From assembly GCA_025059535.1 (NCBI GenBank), contig JANXCX010000024.1:23425-87424 (forward strand): 64,000 nucleotides of DNA. The letters are read 5' to 3'. The notes below the pieces were generated by a model. It did not search any database. It worked only from the letters and a program-made list of their open reading frames with translations, and was not told where the DNA came from. Made by a program: the position numbers and the translations under genes. Below, piece by piece: positions 8,543 to 60,561 of the stretch (its first letter is position 1; each line of letters opens with the position of its first letter). This stretch comes from Bacteroidia bacterium (GTDB lineage: Bacteria > Bacteroidota > Bacteroidia > SpSt-205).

Positions 8543-8559
8543 TTAGCAAAAGTACAACT

Positions 8560-9255: not shown

Positions 9256-9263
9256 TAATTTTG
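9256..9263 (+). promoter_or_regulatory. Bacteroidota-type -7 element (TAATTTTG, matching TAnnTTTG) upstream of the usp gene
   Basis: The motif matches the σA -7 consensus of Bacteroidetes and lies 8 nt before the ATG at 9271, in a 51-bp divergent region shared with rpe. Confidence 0.3.
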
Positions 9264-10240: not shown

Positions 10241-10277
10241 CATTACGTGCACCTTTATCTACCTTTGTGGGTGCGCT

Positions 10278-14576: not shown

Positions 14577-15632
14577 ATGCGCCGTGTATGGGTTACAGGT
14601 GGGGCAGGTTTCATCGGGAGTCACTTGGTGCGTTGGCTTGTCCGACACTACCCGCACTGGGCGATTCACACCTTAGACGCTCTTACTTACGCGGGGCATT
14701 TAGCTAATCTGGAAGACCTTCAAGGCGCTCCCAATCATCACTTTCATCAGGTAAATATCGCTGATCGGGCGGCTCTAGAGGCGCTTTGGGAGAGTGTGCC
14801 GCCGGATTGGATCTTCCATCTGGCGGCCGAAAGTCATGTAGACCGCAGCATTCTCTCTCCCCTGGACTTCGTGCATACTAACATTGTGGGTACTGCGGTG
14901 CTTCTAGAGCTAGCGCGCCATCGCTGGACTGACAAAACCGACAAGCTCTTTTATCACGTCTCTACGGATGAGGTTTATGGCAGCCTTGGGGAGGAGGGGT
15001 ATTTTACCGAAGAGACACCTTATGCACCGCGCAGCCCTTATGCCGCCTCCAAAGCGGCGGCCGACCATTTAGTGCGGGCCTACGGCCATACCTATGGCCT
15101 GCCTTATATCATCAGTAATTGCGGCAATAACTACGGCCCCTACCAATTTCCCGAAAAACTTATCCCCCTTACCATCATGAACCTGATAGAGCGTCAGCCT
15201 ATCCCCGTATATGGCAAAGGCGAAAATATGCGCGACTGGATCTATGTAGAGGATCATGTGCGGGCAATTATACGGCTGGCGGAGCAGGCCCCGCGCGGCC
15301 GCACCTACCTCATCAGCGCCCAAAATGTACGCCGCAATAGAGAAGTAGTTGAGCTCCTCTGTGATCTGTATGACGCGCTTAGAGGCACTAAGGACTCCCG
15401 TCGGCTTATTCGGTTTGTGCAGGATCGGCCTGGCCATGACTACCGCTACGCCCTCCAGCCCTCCTCTACCCTACTGGACCTAGGCTGGCAACCTGAAGTA
15501 GACTTCCATGAGGGCCTGCGCCAAACCCTTGAGTGGTATCAAACGCACCAGAGCTGGCTGAATGCCGTCCGAACAAGCGCCTACCACACCTACTATCAAA
15601 AGCAATATGCCCATAGACTATCCTCTTCCTAA
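14577..15632 (+). CDS. rfbB: dTDP-glucose 4,6-dehydratase
   Basis: GGAGFIGS Rossmann motif, YHVSTDEVYG, and YAASKAAADHLVRAY (the YxxxK catalytic motif). It aligns along its whole length with the RmlB pattern. Confidence 0.9.
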   Translation: MRRVWVTGGAGFIGSHLVRWLVRHYPHWAIHTLDALTYAGHLANLEDLQGAPNHHFHQVNIADRAALEALWESVPPDWIFHLAAESHVDRSILSPLDFVHTNIVGTAVLLELARHRWTDKTDKLFYHVSTDEVYGSLGEEGYFTEETPYAPRSPYAASKAAADHLVRAYGHTYGLPYIISNCGNNYGPYQFPEKLIPLTIMNLIERQPIPVYGKGENMRDWIYVEDHVRAIIRLAEQAPRGRTYLISAQNVRRNREVVELLCDLYDALRGTKDSRRLIRFVQDRPGHDYRYALQPSSTLLDLGWQPEVDFHEGLRQTLEWYQTHQSWLNAVRTSAYHTYYQKQYAHRLSSS

Positions 15633-15638
15633 ATTTGT

Positions 15639-16037
15639 ATGCCTATGCCAAAAAAGCGTATCCTCTGCGTAGACGATGAAAAGGTAGTGCTGAATACCCT
15701 CATGGGTCAGCTCTATCAGGCCTTCGGAAACCGCTACCTTTACGAATCTTTCACTAGCGCCGAGGAGGCGGAGGAATTCATAGACGAGGTCTATGCCGAA
15801 GGTGAAAATGTAGACCTCATCATTTGCGATTGGCTTATGCCGCGCATCAAGGGTGATGAATTCCTTGTGCGCGTCCGCAAGCGCTTCCCCGACTTAGCTC
15901 TAATTATGCTCTCAGGACAGGCTAATCCCGAAGCCATAGAACGTGCCAAGCAAGAAGCTAAAATTCTGGCCTTTGTTCAAAAACCTTGGGACAAGGATGA
16001 GCTAATGGGGCTAATTCAGAAGGCCCTGGAAGGATGA
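15639..16037 (+). CDS. Stand-alone response-regulator receiver (CheY-like), first of two
   Basis: The DD pair (CVDDE), the phospho-acceptor D in LIICDWLMP, and the K in FVQKPWD are present. 132 aa with no output domain. Confidence 0.85.
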   Translation: MPMPKKRILCVDDEKVVLNTLMGQLYQAFGNRYLYESFTSAEEAEEFIDEVYAEGENVDLIICDWLMPRIKGDEFLVRVRKRFPDLALIMLSGQANPEAIERAKQEAKILAFVQKPWDKDELMGLIQKALEG

Positions 16038-16444
16038 GCCGGCCCGTCTTACTTTTTGTAGATGATGAAAAATTCGTATTAGACACACTTTTAGTGCAGG
16101 TGCGCTCGGCCTTTGGGGAGCGGTATGACTATGAAGTGGCCCAAAGCGCCGAAGAAGCCTGGGAAATTCTCCATGAGTATAAGGAAAGCCAGCGGCGCAT
16201 CGTCCTCCTTATTAGCGATTGGCTCATGCCGCTTGAGAAAGGGGATAGCTTTCTCATACGCGTGGCAGAACGCTACCCGGATATCCGTCTGATTATGCTT
16301 TCGGCTTATGCGGATGAGGCAGCTATTGCGCGCGCCCAGCGCTACGCCAACCTCACCGCCTTCCTTCGTAAGCCTTGGGAGCGTCATCACCTCCTTCAAA
16401 CTATCCAAGAGGCCCTGACCGATGAAAAGCCTAAAATGGATTAA
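16034..16444 (+). CDS. Stand-alone response-regulator receiver (CheY-like), second of two
   Basis: FVDDE, LLISDWLMP and FLRKPWE. It overlaps the first receiver by 4 bp and is paralogous to it. Confidence 0.85.
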   Translation: MSRPVLLFVDDEKFVLDTLLVQVRSAFGERYDYEVAQSAEEAWEILHEYKESQRRIVLLISDWLMPLEKGDSFLIRVAERYPDIRLIMLSAYADEAAIARAQRYANLTAFLRKPWERHHLLQTIQEALTDEKPKMD

Positions 16445-16534
16445 GAGAGCTGCCCTCTTAGCTACTCTATTCTTCCTTATCAAGGGACTTTTTTGGCTTG
16501 CTTTAGCTGCAAGCACGCTCTATTTTTGTAGCCG

Positions 16535-18181
16535 GTGAAAGCCGAGGCTATCTCCTTAGCTCAGCTTACCTGGCATCCCGACGATACGCTAGCGCAGTGG
16601 AGTGGCCGATTTTTGCAACTCCTTCATAGTAGCTTACCTTTACTCTCGGCCGCCCTTTATGGGGAAGTAGCGGAGGGTACCTACGAATTCCTTGGCGGAT
16701 ATGCTCTCACCCAGCCATCCAAGCCGAGCTTTCAACTTTGCGAAGGCCTAATAGGAGAGGTAGCTTATACCCAAAGGCCAACCCTCCATCCCTTGGGAAA
16801 TACAACGCCTATGCCTGTAGGGTTTGGCCTTCTGGCCCCTCAATTCTACTGGGCTTACCCTTGGGTGTATCAGAATCGCACCGTCGCCGTGGTAGAGGCG
16901 TCCCTCTGGCGCCCTTTCTCCGAAGCCGAAACCACCTGGCTGGAAAGTAATTACTCCCTCCTCAGCATGCTGCTAAGTAGTACCCTTCAGCAGGAACGCA
17001 TCCAGCGGCTTCTGGCCGAACAACGCCGCCAGAATCAGCTTCTTCAGGAAAACCTCGCCCAGCTGGAACAAGTCAAAGCCGAACTGAGTACCCTAAACCT
17101 CTCCCTAGAGGCCCGCGTAGCCGAGCGTACGCAAGAATTGCGTAAAGCCTTAGACGACCTGCGCACAGCCCAAGAGCAGCTTATCCTCTCCGAAAAGATG
17201 GCGGCCTTAGGCCAACTTGTAGCCGGCGTAGCCCATGAGATCAATAGCCCCTTAGGGGCGATCAAAGGCTCCGCTGAAACGCTCTTAGAAGCCCTGCCGC
17301 GCCTGCTGGGGCTAATAGCCAAGCTAGGCACCGCCGACAGTGCCGCCCTCCATACGACCTTAAAGGGGCTGCAAAAGTACTTCCAGCGCGGCGACCGCCC
17401 CATCCTAACCTCCCGTGAGGAGCGCAGCTGGCGGCGCATTTATACCCAAAAGCTAGCCGAAGCGGGCCTAAATGACGCCGACGCCCTCGCCCGCCAACTT
17501 GTAGAATCAGGCCTCATTATGGAGGACCTCTCCGAACTCCTCCCCCTGCTAGCCTATCCAGAAGGCGGCGAGGTAATTTACCTTTTAGGCCAGCTCAAGC
17601 TGCAACTGGACAATATCGTCTTAGCGGCCAATCGCACCCGCAAAACCGTCTTTGCCCTCAAAAGTTACGCTCATACCTCCGACCATGCCCATCCCACACT
17701 TACCCGTCTGGACGAGTCTATCGAAACTATCCTTACCCTCTACCAAAATCAGCTCAAGCAAGGGATCACCGTGCATACCACCTACGACCCAGAGGTACCG
17801 CCTCTCTACCTCTTTGCCGATGAAGTAGGCCAAATATGGACCAATCTCTTACAGAATGCCATTCAGGCTATGCAGGGCCAGGGTAAAATTGAGATTAGGG
17901 TAAAACTTGAAAATACGCACGTGCGGATAGACTTTATGGACAACGGCCCAGGCATACCTCCAGAGATTCTACCACGCATCTTTGAGCCTTTCTTTACTAC
18001 TAAACCCAAAGGAGAGGGCACTGGCCTGGGTCTGGACATTTGCCGCCGCATCGTAGAAAAGCATAGAGGGCGCCTTACCGTCCAAAGTCAGCCCGGCCAA
18101 ACTACCTTTTCGGTATATTTTCCTTTGTCGCTGTCTCAGCCGAATTGGTACGCCCATGAACCTACTGCTGAAAGGGTTTGA
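16535..18181 (+). CDS. Soluble sensor histidine kinase (N-terminal GAF-like domain, coiled coil, HisKA, HATPase_c)
   Basis: GTG start. GAF-like N-terminus with no TM segments. H-box LVAGVAHEINSPLGAI, N-box QIWTNLLQNAIQAM, G1 DNGPGIP, G2 GEGTGLGLDICRRIV. About 150 aa are inserted between the H-box and the N-box. Confidence 0.85.
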   Translation: MKAEAISLAQLTWHPDDTLAQWSGRFLQLLHSSLPLLSAALYGEVAEGTYEFLGGYALTQPSKPSFQLCEGLIGEVAYTQRPTLHPLGNTTPMPVGFGLLAPQFYWAYPWVYQNRTVAVVEASLWRPFSEAETTWLESNYSLLSMLLSSTLQQERIQRLLAEQRRQNQLLQENLAQLEQVKAELSTLNLSLEARVAERTQELRKALDDLRTAQEQLILSEKMAALGQLVAGVAHEINSPLGAIKGSAETLLEALPRLLGLIAKLGTADSAALHTTLKGLQKYFQRGDRPILTSREERSWRRIYTQKLAEAGLNDADALARQLVESGLIMEDLSELLPLLAYPEGGEVIYLLGQLKLQLDNIVLAANRTRKTVFALKSYAHTSDHAHPTLTRLDESIETILTLYQNQLKQGITVHTTYDPEVPPLYLFADEVGQIWTNLLQNAIQAMQGQGKIEIRVKLENTHVRIDFMDNGPGIPPEILPRIFEPFFTTKPKGEGTGLGLDICRRIVEKHRGRLTVQSQPGQTTFSVYFPLSLSQPNWYAHEPTAERV

Positions 18182-18905
18182 AGATTTCGGCCAGTACCTT
18201 CTTCTCCTGCGTCGCAGCTTCACAGGACTTCTGCGGTTTCGGCTGTACTGGGAACTTTGGACCCACGAGCAAATCCACATGGGCCGCGATAGCCTTTTCC
18301 TTGTGGCCATTATTTCCCTCTTTGTTGGTGCGGTAACAACCGTTCAGACCGCCTACCAAATCGTTTCCCCCTTCATCCCTAAATCTACCATCGGCGCTAT
18401 TGTATCTACCTCCGCCATCTTAGAACTGGCTCCCACGGTTACCTCGTTGGTACTAGCGGGCCGAATAGGCTCCAGCATCGCTTCGCAAATCGGCTCCATG
18501 CGCGTCAGCGAACAGATAGACGCCTTAGAGGTAATGGGGATCAATTCCGCTACTTACCTAATTCTACCGAGGCTTTTTAGCGCTATCGTAGCCTTCCCTT
18601 TATTGGTCATTTATGCGTGCTTTATTGTACATGTTGGGGGGATTATTGCGGGAGCCTTCACGGGGGCTGTAAATCCCACCCAATTCGCCATAGGGGCCCG
18701 CAGCTTCTTTGAGGGCTTCCAGATTACCTTTATGCTTATCAAGGCCGTAACCTTCGGCTTTATTATCTCTACAGTTTCCGCCTATCAGGGCTACTTTGTA
18801 CGCGGTGGGGCCTTAGAGGTAGGTAAATCCAGCACGCGCGCCGTGGTAGTGAGCTGCCTTATGATACTGGTAGCCGACTACGTCTTAGCGCAGCTGCTTT
18901 TATGA
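18156..18905 (+). CDS. mlaE: ABC transporter permease, MlaE family
   Basis: MlaE/Ttg2B pattern: ...SMRVSEQIDALEVMGINSATYLILPRLFSAIVAFPLL... The ORF overlaps the kinase stop by 26 bp. Confidence 0.8.
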   Translation: MNLLLKGFEDFGQYLLLLRRSFTGLLRFRLYWELWTHEQIHMGRDSLFLVAIISLFVGAVTTVQTAYQIVSPFIPKSTIGAIVSTSAILELAPTVTSLVLAGRIGSSIASQIGSMRVSEQIDALEVMGINSATYLILPRLFSAIVAFPLLVIYACFIVHVGGIIAGAFTGAVNPTQFAIGARSFFEGFQITFMLIKAVTFGFIISTVSAYQGYFVRGGALEVGKSSTRAVVVSCLMILVADYVLAQLLL

Positions 18906-19651
18906 GCCTTTTGCGTATAGAAGGGATTTCTAAGTGGTTTGGAGCTACCCAAGTGCTTTACGATATCTCTTTCACCTTTTACCCAGGCCAGATTAACATG
19001 ATTATCGGGCCAAGCGGCTGCGGTAAAACAGTCCTGCTCAAGTGCATAGTAGGGCTTATACGCCCCGAAACGGGCAAGGTATTCTTTGGCGAGATAGATT
19101 TTCTAAAAGCCAGTTCTGAACAGAGGCGCAGCATACTGAAAAACTTGGGTATGCTTTTTCAATCCTCTGCGCTCTTTGACTCTATGACAGTAGGCGAAAA
19201 TGTGGCCTTTCCGTTGAGGGTATTCACGCGCCAGCCAGAAAAAGTTATTCAGGATCGCGTAGCCTACTGCTTGGAGCGGGTAGGTCTGGCAGGCCTACAG
19301 GCGAAATACCCCGCTGAGCTCTCTGGTGGCATGAAGCGGCGCGTGGGCTTAGCCCGGGCCATCGCCCTCACTCCTAAATACCTCTTCTGTGACGAGCCGA
19401 ATTCGGGCCTAGATCCCCTTACGGCCCGTCGCATAGACGAGCTCATTCAGGAAATTACCCAAGAATTCCAAACTACCACCGTCGTAGTTACCCATGACCT
19501 CAAAAGCATGTTGGATATGGGGCAGCGGATCCTCTTCTTATACCAAGGTCGGGCCGAATGGCAAGGCACTCGCACCCAACTTTTTCGGGAGCTGGAAGCA
19601 CTCCCCCCAAATCTTTCCAACTTCCTCCACGCTTCCGGCCTAATTAGATAA
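18902..19651 (+). CDS. mlaF: ABC transporter ATP-binding protein, MlaF family
   Basis: Walker A GPSGCGKT, signature LSGGMKRRVGLARA, Walker B LFCDEPNSGLDP. It overlaps mlaE by 4 bp. Confidence 0.8.
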   Translation: MSLLRIEGISKWFGATQVLYDISFTFYPGQINMIIGPSGCGKTVLLKCIVGLIRPETGKVFFGEIDFLKASSEQRRSILKNLGMLFQSSALFDSMTVGENVAFPLRVFTRQPEKVIQDRVAYCLERVGLAGLQAKYPAELSGGMKRRVGLARAIALTPKYLFCDEPNSGLDPLTARRIDELIQEITQEFQTTTVVVTHDLKSMLDMGQRILFLYQGRAEWQGTRTQLFRELEALPPNLSNFLHASGLIR

Positions 19652-24054: not shown

Positions 24055-24735
24055 CTACGGCAGAGAGATAGAAGTAGGTTGCACTCGTGCATCTTGGCAA
24101 AGGTACGTAGGAGCAGGCATATCGCGCAAGTGCTGAAGGTTATGGGTAGCTAAAAGCACAGCGGTGCCCCAGCGGGCAATTTGGTGGAAAAGGGCTAGAA
24201 TTTGCTGGCCTACCTCTGGGTCAAGGTTACCCGTAGGTTCGTCCGCCAGGAGCACGATAGGTGCGCCTACCAAGGCGCGCGCAATACAAGTGCGCTGCTG
24301 CTCCCCGGCTGAAATCTGATGAGGGTAAGCATCCTTACGGGCTAAAAGCCCCACCTTGCCCAGAACCTCCAAGACAGCTTCCTTGATCTTCCTCTTATCC
24401 CGCCAGCCGCGCACCTCCAGGGTAAGCGCGACATTCTGCCAAACCGTCCGGTAGGGAAGAAGCTGAAAATCCTGAAAGACAATTCCCAATCGGCGACGCA
24501 GGTAAGGCAGTTCAGCGGGCCTGAGGGTATCTACGCGCATATCCCCCACCCATATTTCGCCGCGTAGGGGACGCAGATCGCCGTAGATGGCGCGCAGAAG
24601 GGTAGTTTTGCCTGCGCCCGTTCGGCCCGTAAGGTAAGCAAAATCACCCTTCTGAAGAACAAAGGTAACGCCTTCAAGCACAACTCTACTCCCGTACCCC
24701 AGGGTGACATTCCGCAGGGTTAGGGCTGCTGACAT
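24055..24735 (-). CDS. ftsE: Cell-division ABC ATPase FtsE-like
   Basis: Walker [10 protein letters not shown], signature [14 protein letters not shown], Walker [13 protein letters not shown]. The length of 226 aa is typical of FtsE. No ftsX is adjacent. Confidence 0.7.
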
Positions 24736-26817: not shown

Positions 26818-26863
26818 GGCACAAGTATAGCAAAAATTCAGGCTTTTAGCCTAACTTTGCTGC

Positions 26864-36338: not shown

Positions 36339-36566
36339 GGCTCAAACTTACGGGATATATAGCTAACCGCTTGATTCCTGGGGCTTTGTCGGGCAGAGAA
36401 TAAGCGCTAGTAAGCAGGAGCTCTGGCCAGATAGCGTCCGTTAGGCCTACTAAGGCATCGCCCTAAGGAATTGAATAGGCGCCCCAAGCCATTTGAGCCT
36501 AAGAGGGGGGTGGCGCGGGAAAGCTTTTAGCTGCTCTTACGCAAGCTGGCGGACCAAACTTTCCAT

Positions 36567-44251: not shown

Positions 44252-44643
44252 GGCTCAAATATAAGCTCTAGGTCACTGCGCGTGAGCTCGGATAGACTAT
44301 ACATGCTCTCCGAGAATTCTTTACCTTCTCGGCTCATGCGTACAATGATAGTGTCGGCATGCTGGATAGCCATAGCGAAATTACCCTTGTCATCCGTGCG
44401 GGTCTCACCCAGAACGCGGCCAGAAGCTCTGTCCACGAACCATATACGCACGCTTTTCTGAGCTTCCCCTTTAGCACTTACCACTTTACCGCTTATCGTC
44501 TCCATGATCACTACTTCCTCTTGTTCAGGTGCTTGGGTGGCTGGACGGATGGGTGTGCGGCGTACCGGCACATTCGTATGGCTCCTTCCCTCCTCTTGCG
44601 CCCATAAAAGGGGTAGCGCTACGAAAGCCCACATGAGCCGTTT
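44248..44643 (-). CDS. Small secreted protein with a carboxypeptidase-regulatory-like (CarbopepD_reg) beta-sandwich domain
   Basis: Signal peptide MKRLMWAFVALPLLWAQ from the internal Met. ISGKVVSAKGE...VRIWFVD...TRTDDKGNFAM fits the CarbopepD_reg pattern. It overlaps the S8 protease gene by 4 bp. Confidence 0.4.
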   Translation of the reverse strand, partial: KRLMWAFVALPLLWAQEEGRSHTNVPVRRTPIRPATQAPEQEEVVIMETISGKVVSAKGEAQKSVRIWFVDRASGRVLGETRTDDKGNFAMAIQHADTIIVRMSREGKEFSESMYSLSELTRSDLELIFEP

Positions 44644-52621: not shown

Positions 52622-52649
52622 CGGTCAAAATTAGCCAAGTTTAGGCACC

Positions 52650-52657
52650 TATCTTTG
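52650..52657 (+). promoter_or_regulatory. TAtcTTTG -7 element upstream of argS
   Basis: It matches the Bacteroidota TAnnTTTG motif and lies 5 nt before the ATG at 52662, in a 40-bp divergent region shared with queA. Confidence 0.3.
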
Positions 52658-60544: not shown

Positions 60545-60561
60545 CTAGCAAATTTACGGCC

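Follow-up and report, generated by a model that had tools for sequence, protein, structure and literature searches.

What do two response regulators without output domains, and the soluble histidine kinase encoded beside them, control, and why are their genes joined to those of a lipid-transport ABC system? This question is raised by a locus within a 64,000-nucleotide (nt) stretch (hereafter the window) of contig JANXCX010000024.1 (assembly GCA_025059535.1) from a Bacteroidia bacterium, in whose numbering coordinates are given unless a related locus (L001 and so on) is named before them. The locus is a cassette of six genes on the + strand, in the order RR1, RR2, a gene for a mini-protein of 38 amino acids (aa), a GAF histidine kinase gene (HK), mlaE and mlaF. 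It is a complete phospho-signalling set without an output gene, joined to mlaEF and kept joined across diverged lineages, and the cassette is inherited as a unit. Our tentative answer is that the receivers may act directly on the transporter encoded next to them.

Layout and conservation of the cassette

All five junctions of the cassette are overlaps, of 4, 23, 4, 26 and 4 nt in order. RR1 (15645..16037) encodes a stand-alone CheY-like receiver of 130 aa, and it shares a 4-nt ATGA overlap with RR2 (16034..16444), whose product of 136 aa is a second stand-alone receiver, paralogous to the first and 47% identical to it. The mini-protein gene (16422..16538) begins with an ATG located 23 nt within RR2 and ends with a TGA that shares bases with the GTG of HK (GTGA); HK itself (16535, GTG, to 18181) encodes a soluble sensor kinase of 548 aa. 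The initial annotation had described a kinase stop overlapping the mlaE start and an mlaF that overlaps mlaE in turn, and both overlaps are present, with lengths of 26 and 4 nt, respectively. It had overlooked the sixth gene, which occupies what appeared to be a 90-nt spacer between RR2 and the kinase. The ATG of mlaE (18156..18905), 26 nt inside the kinase gene, is the sole start codon ahead of the conserved MlaE N-terminus. For RR1, the longest open reading frame (ORF) begins at 15639; however, the MPKK with which all orthologues begin is encoded from the ATG at 15645, the second in the ORF, and TAnnTTTG is conserved 7 nt upstream of it, so the true start is most likely 15645 instead of 15639.

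The product of mlaE is an MlaE-family ABC permease of 249 aa, which scores 217.6 bits with PF02405 (cut-off 22.5) and 170 bits with TIGR00056 (cut-off 212). The mlaF-like gene (18902..19651) encodes an ABC ATPase, also of 249 aa, with an ABC_tran score of 113 bits; it reaches 174 bits with the NCBIfam MlaF model NF008809 against an equivalog cut-off of 441 and is by these models a generic ABC ATPase. In all related loci seen, mlaF adjoins mlaE. Neither the cassette nor the ten candidate window ORFs that were scanned contain MlaD, MlaB (STAS), MlaC or MlaA.

Synteny was compared in a sample of about a dozen loci from approximately eight lineages, which is not a census. Gene contexts were taken from orthologues, since look-ups by exact sequence of the window kinase and of its 100% identical cluster representative led to no contig. 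Scans of the sequence collections were dominated by paralogous kinases, and among the matches listed there were at least one close orthologue from genomes and at least seven from metagenomes. The full cassette, in which the mini-protein is variable, is present in the window, L001/L002, L003, L004/L005, L006, L086-L090 and L170, and a partial one in the truncated loci L091 and L092; no orthologous kinase without the cassette occurs among the matches listed. Thus, the RR-RR-HK-mlaEF block, whose synteny in related genomes had been named as a check, recurs in all orthologous loci with enough flanking sequence, and the overlap between HK and mlaE measures 26-29 nt in the loci checked (L001, L003, L004 and L170). 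Together with the overlap at each junction, this bears out the earlier claim that the signalling genes are tightly bound to mlaEF. The flanks of the cassette represent at least three different contexts: upstream neighbours vary between rfbB, iPGM and a divergent Por_Secre_tail gene, and downstream neighbours between fumC, a convergent peptidase gene and an aldehyde dehydrogenase gene. So far, the cassette has been found only in metagenome-assembled genomes of uncultured Bacteroidia, several of them from hot-spring samples judging by names like KatS3mg025.

Identity to the window proteins over nine orthologous loci differs greatly between the components. RR1 is the most conserved protein of the cassette (77-92%), followed by MlaE (73-89%), RR2 (60-84%) and MlaF (61-79%), with the whole kinase at 46-62% and its GAF domain at 30-47%. 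MlaE is 73-100% identical within the cassette clade, and its identity declines smoothly to 65% and 59% in sister Bacteroidia, where mlaE and mlaF form a simple pair that no two-component genes precede. From this distribution we conclude that one lineage acquired the signalling genes ahead of a housekeeping-type mlaEF and has retained them since. The link to envelope lipid genes had been called unusual, and as a gene link it is indeed lineage-specific and undescribed in the literature searched.

Several observations on related loci may be added here. In a genome of sister Bacteroidia, no gene is called in the approximately 1.7 kb upstream of mlaE (L167 3290-5001); translation in several frames yields peptide repeats such as PGFRLGVSWPEAWPPQASGLGYPGP, which suggests that the DNA is tandemly repeated. 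In a sister lineage where mlaEF lacks signalling genes, the third gene downstream of mlaF codes for a STAS-domain protein of 133 aa (L166 8520-8921, - strand). The region from rfbB to cca is found twice on one 2.7-Mb contig (GCA_017880035.1, JAEDZT010001272.1), as L169 (450931-463596) and L170 (2677274-2690023). The L170 copy is intact, whereas the L169 copy is fragmented, with a kinase of 210 aa, an MlaE of 221 aa and a split fumC; the pair was not counted as a true duplication, since the fragmented genes make an assembly or strain-mixing artefact probable.

With regard to transcription, the window contains more copies of the Bacteroidota -7 box TAnnTTTG than expected (46 compared to 29.5), and none of 100 shuffles reaches 46. 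One copy, TAAATTTG, lies on the + strand at 15630..15637, 7 nt upstream of the RR1 start, and overlaps the stop codon of rfbB; L001, L004, L087, L090 and L091 have the same box, with 14-15 nt from the first base of the motif to the RR1 ATG. We infer that it acts as a promoter element of RR1. Between 16528 and 20459, TAnnTTTG does not occur on the + strand, which leaves mlaE and mlaF without a separate promoter of this type. The pattern speaks for co-transcription of HK, mlaE and mlaF at the least, and the whole block is probably co-transcribed. The two-box pattern TTTG-N17-21-TAnnTTTG is not enriched in the window, a sigma-70 scan was uninformative (two sites compared to 6.6 expected), and terminator-like sites are at chance level (14 compared to 13.3). 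Approximately 15 copies of TAnnTTTG end 4-11 nt before a start codon, which suggests that many genes of this organism may be expressed from leaderless or near-leaderless mRNAs; examples are 9256-9263, 10260-10267, 26852-26859 and 52650-52657 on the + strand, and 8547-8554, 24098-24105, 36343-36350, 44256-44263, 52626-52633 and 60549-60556 on the - strand.

Upstream of the cassette in the window is rfbB (14577-15632), which encodes a dTDP-glucose 4,6-dehydratase (TIGR01181, 431 bits) and stops 6 nt before the RR1 ORF (15639). It holds the same position in at least six other loci (L001, L090, L170, L087, L006 and L089) and not in L003 and L004, and is therefore a second envelope-related gene that is often kept beside the cassette. 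On the other side, fumC begins 22 nt past mlaF. Base composition had also been invoked, the three signalling genes being described as slightly GC-poor at about 50%. This holds for the two receiver genes (49.4% for RR1 and 51.8% for RR2), while the kinase gene has 54.5% and the block as a whole 53.0%, which is at about the 10th percentile of equal-sized stretches of the window (mean 55.1%, standard deviation 1.7%). The argument is without weight, and horizontal transfer argued from low GC was rejected because the block is inside the normal range of the window.

The signalling proteins and the mini-protein

In both receivers, the Pfam Response_reg domain is the sole domain (63 bits for RR1 and 47 bits for RR2), in agreement with their first description as two paralogous receiver-only proteins that overlap by 4 bp and have no output domain. 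RR1 has the acidic pair DD, the acceptor aspartate (CDWLMP), the serine (LSGQ), the lysine (KPW) and the aromatic switch residue F, and all catalytic residues are also present in RR2 (DD, SDWLMP, LSAY and KPW). Every orthologue of either protein retains DD, xDWLMP, LS(G/A), KPW and F at K-3. Judging from these residues, RR1 and RR2 are complete phospho-acceptors that lack an output domain. The best NCBIfam match of both is the receiver of HD-GYP-type regulators.

The kinase core is of the NtrB/AtoS/ZraS type according to both Pfam and NCBIfam. HATPase_c is matched with 105 bits, and the catalytic ATP-binding domain comprises aa 386-535 (17690..18139, + strand); HisKA is matched only partially (profile positions 2-30 of 66, 27.7 bits). 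The phospho-accepting H234 is within the H-box AHEINSPL, and 51 homologues all retain N437/N441, D469-G471-G473, F483/F486 and G495-G499, which belong to the N, G1, F and G2 boxes. No transmembrane segment was detected, the top Kyte-Doolittle mean over 19 residues being 1.27. Judging from these features, the kinase is soluble and catalytically complete. The H-box sequence HEINS (window 17234-17248) has a serine, invariant in the orthologues, where NtrB/AtoS/ZraS-type kinases (HEIxN) have asparagine. The residue at this position, here serine in place of asparagine or threonine, is the one usually implicated in phosphatase activity.

An AlphaFold model of the kinase (mean pLDDT 84) comprises an alpha/beta domain (residues 1-125), a long coiled coil (130-194), helix 1 of the dimerization and histidine phosphotransfer (DHp) domain (202-267), four short insert helices (269-284, 293-309, 315-324 and 336-339), DHp helix 2 (344-380) and the catalytic domain (388-535). 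The catalytic domain superposes on those of ThkA and CckA at 1.6-2.5 A, and a fold search with the full model returned ordinary kinases only. The N-terminal sensor domain (16562..16924, + strand; approximately aa 10-130) is the fastest-evolving part of the cassette. As a single sequence it matches Pfam GAF_2 with E = 0.005, below the cut-off; however, a profile of its family finds nothing but GAF structures in the PDB (such as 3trc, 5w10 and 4g3v; best E = 7e-6), and its model has an alpha/beta fold with pLDDT above 90. On this basis the domain is assigned as a divergent GAF, and the cytoplasmic GAF histidine kinase of the initial annotation stands, with the HisKA match being partial.

The kinase had also been credited with an unusual insert of about 150 aa between its H-box and N-box. 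The insert is real, but it is shorter, is located at the tip of the DHp hairpin and is a trait of a whole family. It corresponds to 17300..17620 on the + strand (aa 256-362, approximately 107 aa, helical), so that the second helix follows about 107 residues further on and the canonical contiguous HisKA (PF00512) hairpin of approximately 66 residues is interrupted. In an alignment with ZraS (9jfj), query residues 211-255 fall on chain positions 10-54 and residues 366-535 on positions 74-239, which gives a length of approximately 100-107 aa and not 150. In a separate model of residues 205-385 (pLDDT 93), both DHp helices are lengthened by the insert, which sits on top of them as a small bundle of helices. 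The insert contains the conserved motifs RPxLTS[RK]EERxLR, ARxLVEAG and GQLxLQLEN. No Pfam or NCBIfam model covers it, and neither a histidine-phosphotransfer signature nor a match to the histidine phosphotransfer (HPt) fold was found in it.

A profile of the insert only, of which the window kinase is the first row, matched 1,815 clusters at E <= 1e-3 and 1,002 at E <= 1e-10 among 1.84 billion representatives, and nearly all of the best 150 matches span almost the entire profile. With more than 1,000 clusters carrying the same insert, it is an uncommon and undescribed family trait and not a single-gene oddity. The nearest paralogous kinases have the insert and are 38-47% identical over residues 173-535. 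They belong to modules that resemble the window cassette in having this insert, a GAF domain that usually precedes the kinase core, and a stand-alone receiver with 46-47% identity to RR1/RR2. Unlike in the cassette, the kinase gene comes first in these modules and is followed by a stand-alone receiver (REC) and then by a fusion of REC to an effector, which is an adenylate/guanylate cyclase, a PP2C phosphatase, PAS-GGDEF-EAL or a kinase (REC-HK). The window cassette has a second stand-alone receiver instead of the effector gene, and mlaEF adjacent to it. RR1 and RR2 have 47% and 46% identity, respectively, to the stand-alone REC of the modules but 38% and 37% to the REC of the effector, and an enzymatic REC fusion (cyclase, PP2C, GGDEF or kinase) is absent from every cassette locus examined. 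Conversely, none of the paralogous and more distant insert-kinase loci scanned contains mlaEF, and the mini-protein was not found in the paralogue modules scanned. Distant insert kinases from Actinobacteria, Chloroflexi, Bacteroidota and Verrucomicrobia pair with REC-thioredoxin-reductase-like fusions. In L011 5936-7615, L012 2766-4565, L017 5985-7667 and L033 2883-4550, from Actinobacteria, Bacteroidota and Verrucomicrobia, the partners are proteins of approximately 560 aa that join a receiver to an FAD oxidoreductase of this type (Pyr_redox_2); the pairing recurs and is apparently uncharacterised.

The mini-protein, MKSLKWIKRAALLATLFFLIKGLFWLALAASTLYFCSR, is predicted to be a single-pass membrane protein with one strongly hydrophobic segment (Kyte-Doolittle maximum 2.15). 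Its ORF is found at the same place in L001, L090, L170, L169 and L004 and is annotated as a gene in three NCBI assemblies. Over 30 codons compared between the window and L001, 6 are identical, 11 synonymous and 13 changed in the amino acid, the changes being mostly conservative and largely within the hydrophobic segment, and most conserved residues use different synonymous codons between loci. A profile search at E <= 1 yielded 1,989 small proteins, and the 120 top-scoring ones are all 44-85 aa long with E <= 1e-10; this family crosses phyla, including Acidobacteria, and has the near-invariant core WLKRFGVxGFLFFLIKGLLWLIVPAL. The synonymous-codon variation and the large protein family indicate that the region between RR2 and the kinase is coding, and its interpretation as a non-coding promoter region was rejected on the same grounds. 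No Pfam or NCBIfam model describes the mini-protein, and its motif was not found in literature searches. In Acidobacteria, its genes (L171 5001-5138 and L174 5001-5141) are divergent from a peptidase_M15/transpeptidase gene. Some NCBI records mislabel members of the family as 'alanyl-tRNA synthetase'.

Possible targets of the receivers

Since the receivers have neither a DNA-binding nor an enzymatic output and the paralogue modules encode their effector next door, MlaFE is the most likely target of RR1 and RR2. The stronger conservation of RR1 than of MlaE and the kinase fits constraint by several binding partners, and a constraint on RR1 exceeding that on the transporter, together with the position of the effector in the paralogues, also makes MlaFE the most economical choice. 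In such a mechanism, the kinase would sense a cytoplasmic cue through its GAF domain, autophosphorylate on H234 and pass the phosphate to RR1 and RR2; the phosphorylated receivers would then bind the co-encoded MlaF/MlaE complex and tune its assembly or ATPase activity, as the STAS protein MlaB does for E. coli MlaF. Of the two receivers, one might act as the effector while the other competes for phosphate, and the mini-protein may anchor the soluble kinase or a receiver at the membrane beside MlaE. We regard phospho-dependent protein-protein control of MlaFE by the receivers as a serious possibility that falls somewhat short of an even chance. A more specific form, in which RR1 and/or RR2 are phosphorylation-switched MlaFE subunits that replace MlaB, with the GAF kinase gating the pump and the mini-protein serving as a membrane tether, is rather doubtful.

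Several points weigh against control of MlaFE by the receivers. The coupling of the receivers to MlaF/MlaE is deduced from gene order alone, and this organism packs its genes tightly (6 nt between rfbB and RR1, and 22 nt between mlaF and fumC), so that overlaps by themselves are no sign of functional coupling. No fusion of REC to MlaF or MlaE turned up, with no search aimed at such fusions having been made, and the cassette MlaF and MlaE have no extra domain, their lengths being 249/249 aa compared to 246/246 aa in sister lineages. An MlaD/MCE gene is missing from the ten window ORFs scanned as candidates. The mini-protein has been lost from one subclade (L003, L006, L086-L089 and L091) that retains the other cassette genes, and in Acidobacteria it is a stand-alone gene beside the peptidase_M15/transpeptidase gene, with no signalling or Mla genes nearby. 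In addition, a second TAnnTTTG box (16521-16528), not conserved in L001, is located 6 nt before the kinase GTG, and HK-mlaEF might thus be transcribed separately from the receivers.

The rival explanations differ in where they place the receivers' partners. In one of them, the genes form a branched or phosphate-sink two-component system with targets elsewhere, e.g., motility, secretion or metabolic enzymes, and mlaEF is co-expressed and not regulated. Stand-alone receivers usually act on diverse and often unlinked partners, two receivers on one kinase is the classic sink layout, and the genome is compact, with many short intergenic gaps; furthermore, the partners of this kinase family elsewhere (cyclases, PP2C, GGDEF-EAL, REC-kinases and REC-thioredoxin-reductase-like fusions) have nothing to do with lipid transport. 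However, the paralogue modules always encode an effector beside the kinase and stand-alone receiver, which argues for local partners, and in all recovered orthologous loci the cassette is intact while its flanks change, with the HK/mlaE overlap kept in those checked. We consider unlinked targets somewhat unlikely. The same persistence speaks against a merely fortuitous gene order in one lineage with compact genomes, without any functional relation: about eight diverged lineages, with kinase identity down to 46%, keep the cassette while the neighbours on both sides have been replaced, and overlapping frames at each junction make separation costly and imply co-translation. An accident would agree with the origin of all cassette loci from one related group of uncultured Bacteroidia, with the sister lineages that have mlaEF and no signalling genes, and with the paralogous kinases, which never adjoin mlaEF in the loci scanned; we nevertheless judge it very unlikely.

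The direction of signalling could also be reversed, with MlaFE, possibly together with the mini-protein, acting as the sensor, a docked kinase reading its activity or lipid load, and RR1/RR2 signalling to unlinked targets. Such an arrangement would account for a kinase without a membrane or periplasmic sensor whose translation is nevertheless coupled to that of a membrane transporter and whose gene follows that of a membrane mini-protein, as well as for a GAF domain that evolves fast (30-47% identity), as if binding no universal ligand; transporter-coupled kinases are established (BceS reads BceAB), and BceS is among the weak PDB matches of the kinase. The features of the Bce type (intramembrane kinase, OmpR-type regulator and FtsX-type permease) are, however, absent, the mini-protein is dispensable in one subclade, the GAF domain is a plausible sensor of the kinase's own, and no output has been identified, so that this reversal appears quite unlikely. 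As for the phosphorelay suggested by the initial annotation, in which phosphate would pass in several His-Asp-His-Asp steps from a receiver to an HPt protein and to a second receiver, two receiver-only proteins beside one kinase are what such a scheme would start from. It finds no support, for want of an intermediate: neither a separate HPt or Spo0B-like protein nor a fusion of one to a receiver is encoded in the cassette, such domains are also missing from the conserved neighbours, and the DHp insert matches neither the signature nor the fold of a histidine phosphotransferase. RR1 and RR2 are, moreover, equally similar to the stand-alone receivers of the paralogue modules. A phosphorelay is therefore extremely improbable.

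Relation to known systems

The cassette bears on the post-translational regulation of Mla/MCE lipid transporters and offers a concrete and cheap test system, consisting of four small soluble or single-pass proteins plus MlaFE. If the receivers are indeed MlaFE subunits, this would be the first two-component system with an MCE/Mla-type ABC transporter as its output and a natural example of a phospho-regulation only hypothesised for MlaB. If the link is one of co-expression only, the cassette would be simply an unusual operon of uncultured bacteria. In either case, it contains two undescribed elements, the DHp insert of approximately 107 aa in more than 1,000 kinase clusters and a very conserved membrane mini-protein of approximately 45-50 aa found across phyla. 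In our literature searches, we found neither the DHp insert nor the mini-protein described, no account of two-component genes within an mlaEF operon, and no precedent for a receiver that acts on MlaFE or on an MCE-type ABC transporter.

Among known kinases, the best NCBIfam and PDB matches include AtoS, ZraS, NtrB, ThkA and ZraS 9jfj. The window kinase shares with NtrB/AtoS/ZraS-type kinases the H-box AHEIxxPL and the N, G1, F and G2 boxes; however, its DHp domain is split by the helical insert, and its partners are output-less receivers, whereas theirs are NtrC-type sigma-54 activators. Single-domain response regulators that act by protein binding are well known, such as CheY (on FliM), DivK and CpdR. 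RR1 and RR2 resemble them in being receiver-only proteins with complete phospho-acceptor and switch residues, the output of which is necessarily a protein-protein contact. A membrane enzyme can be the target of such a contact, as the single-domain receiver EpsW activates a membrane phosphoglycosyl transferase by direct binding (PMC12802240). The BceRS-BceAB systems also have signalling genes encoded with an ABC transporter, but the window kinase is soluble and not intramembrane, its receivers have no DNA-binding domains, and the permease is of the MlaE type.

The closest comparison on the transporter side is E. coli MlaFEDB. Like the cassette, its operon combines genes for an MlaE permease and an MlaF-type ATPase with one for a small accessory protein of the cytoplasm. 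That protein in E. coli, MlaB, binds MlaF, which requires it for associating with MlaE; a phospho-switch at Thr52 has been proposed for the MlaB-MlaF contact but never shown (PMC7367683). For a related MCE transporter, the membrane protein Mce1N blocks assembly (PMC10517005), and the mini-protein of the cassette is similar to it in being a small membrane protein that may modulate a transporter complex. In contrast to MlaFEDB, the cassette has no STAS gene, has two receivers and a kinase of its own, and lacks adjacent mlaD, mlaC and mlaB. The components of the cassette are thus each of a known kind, and it is their combination that is new.

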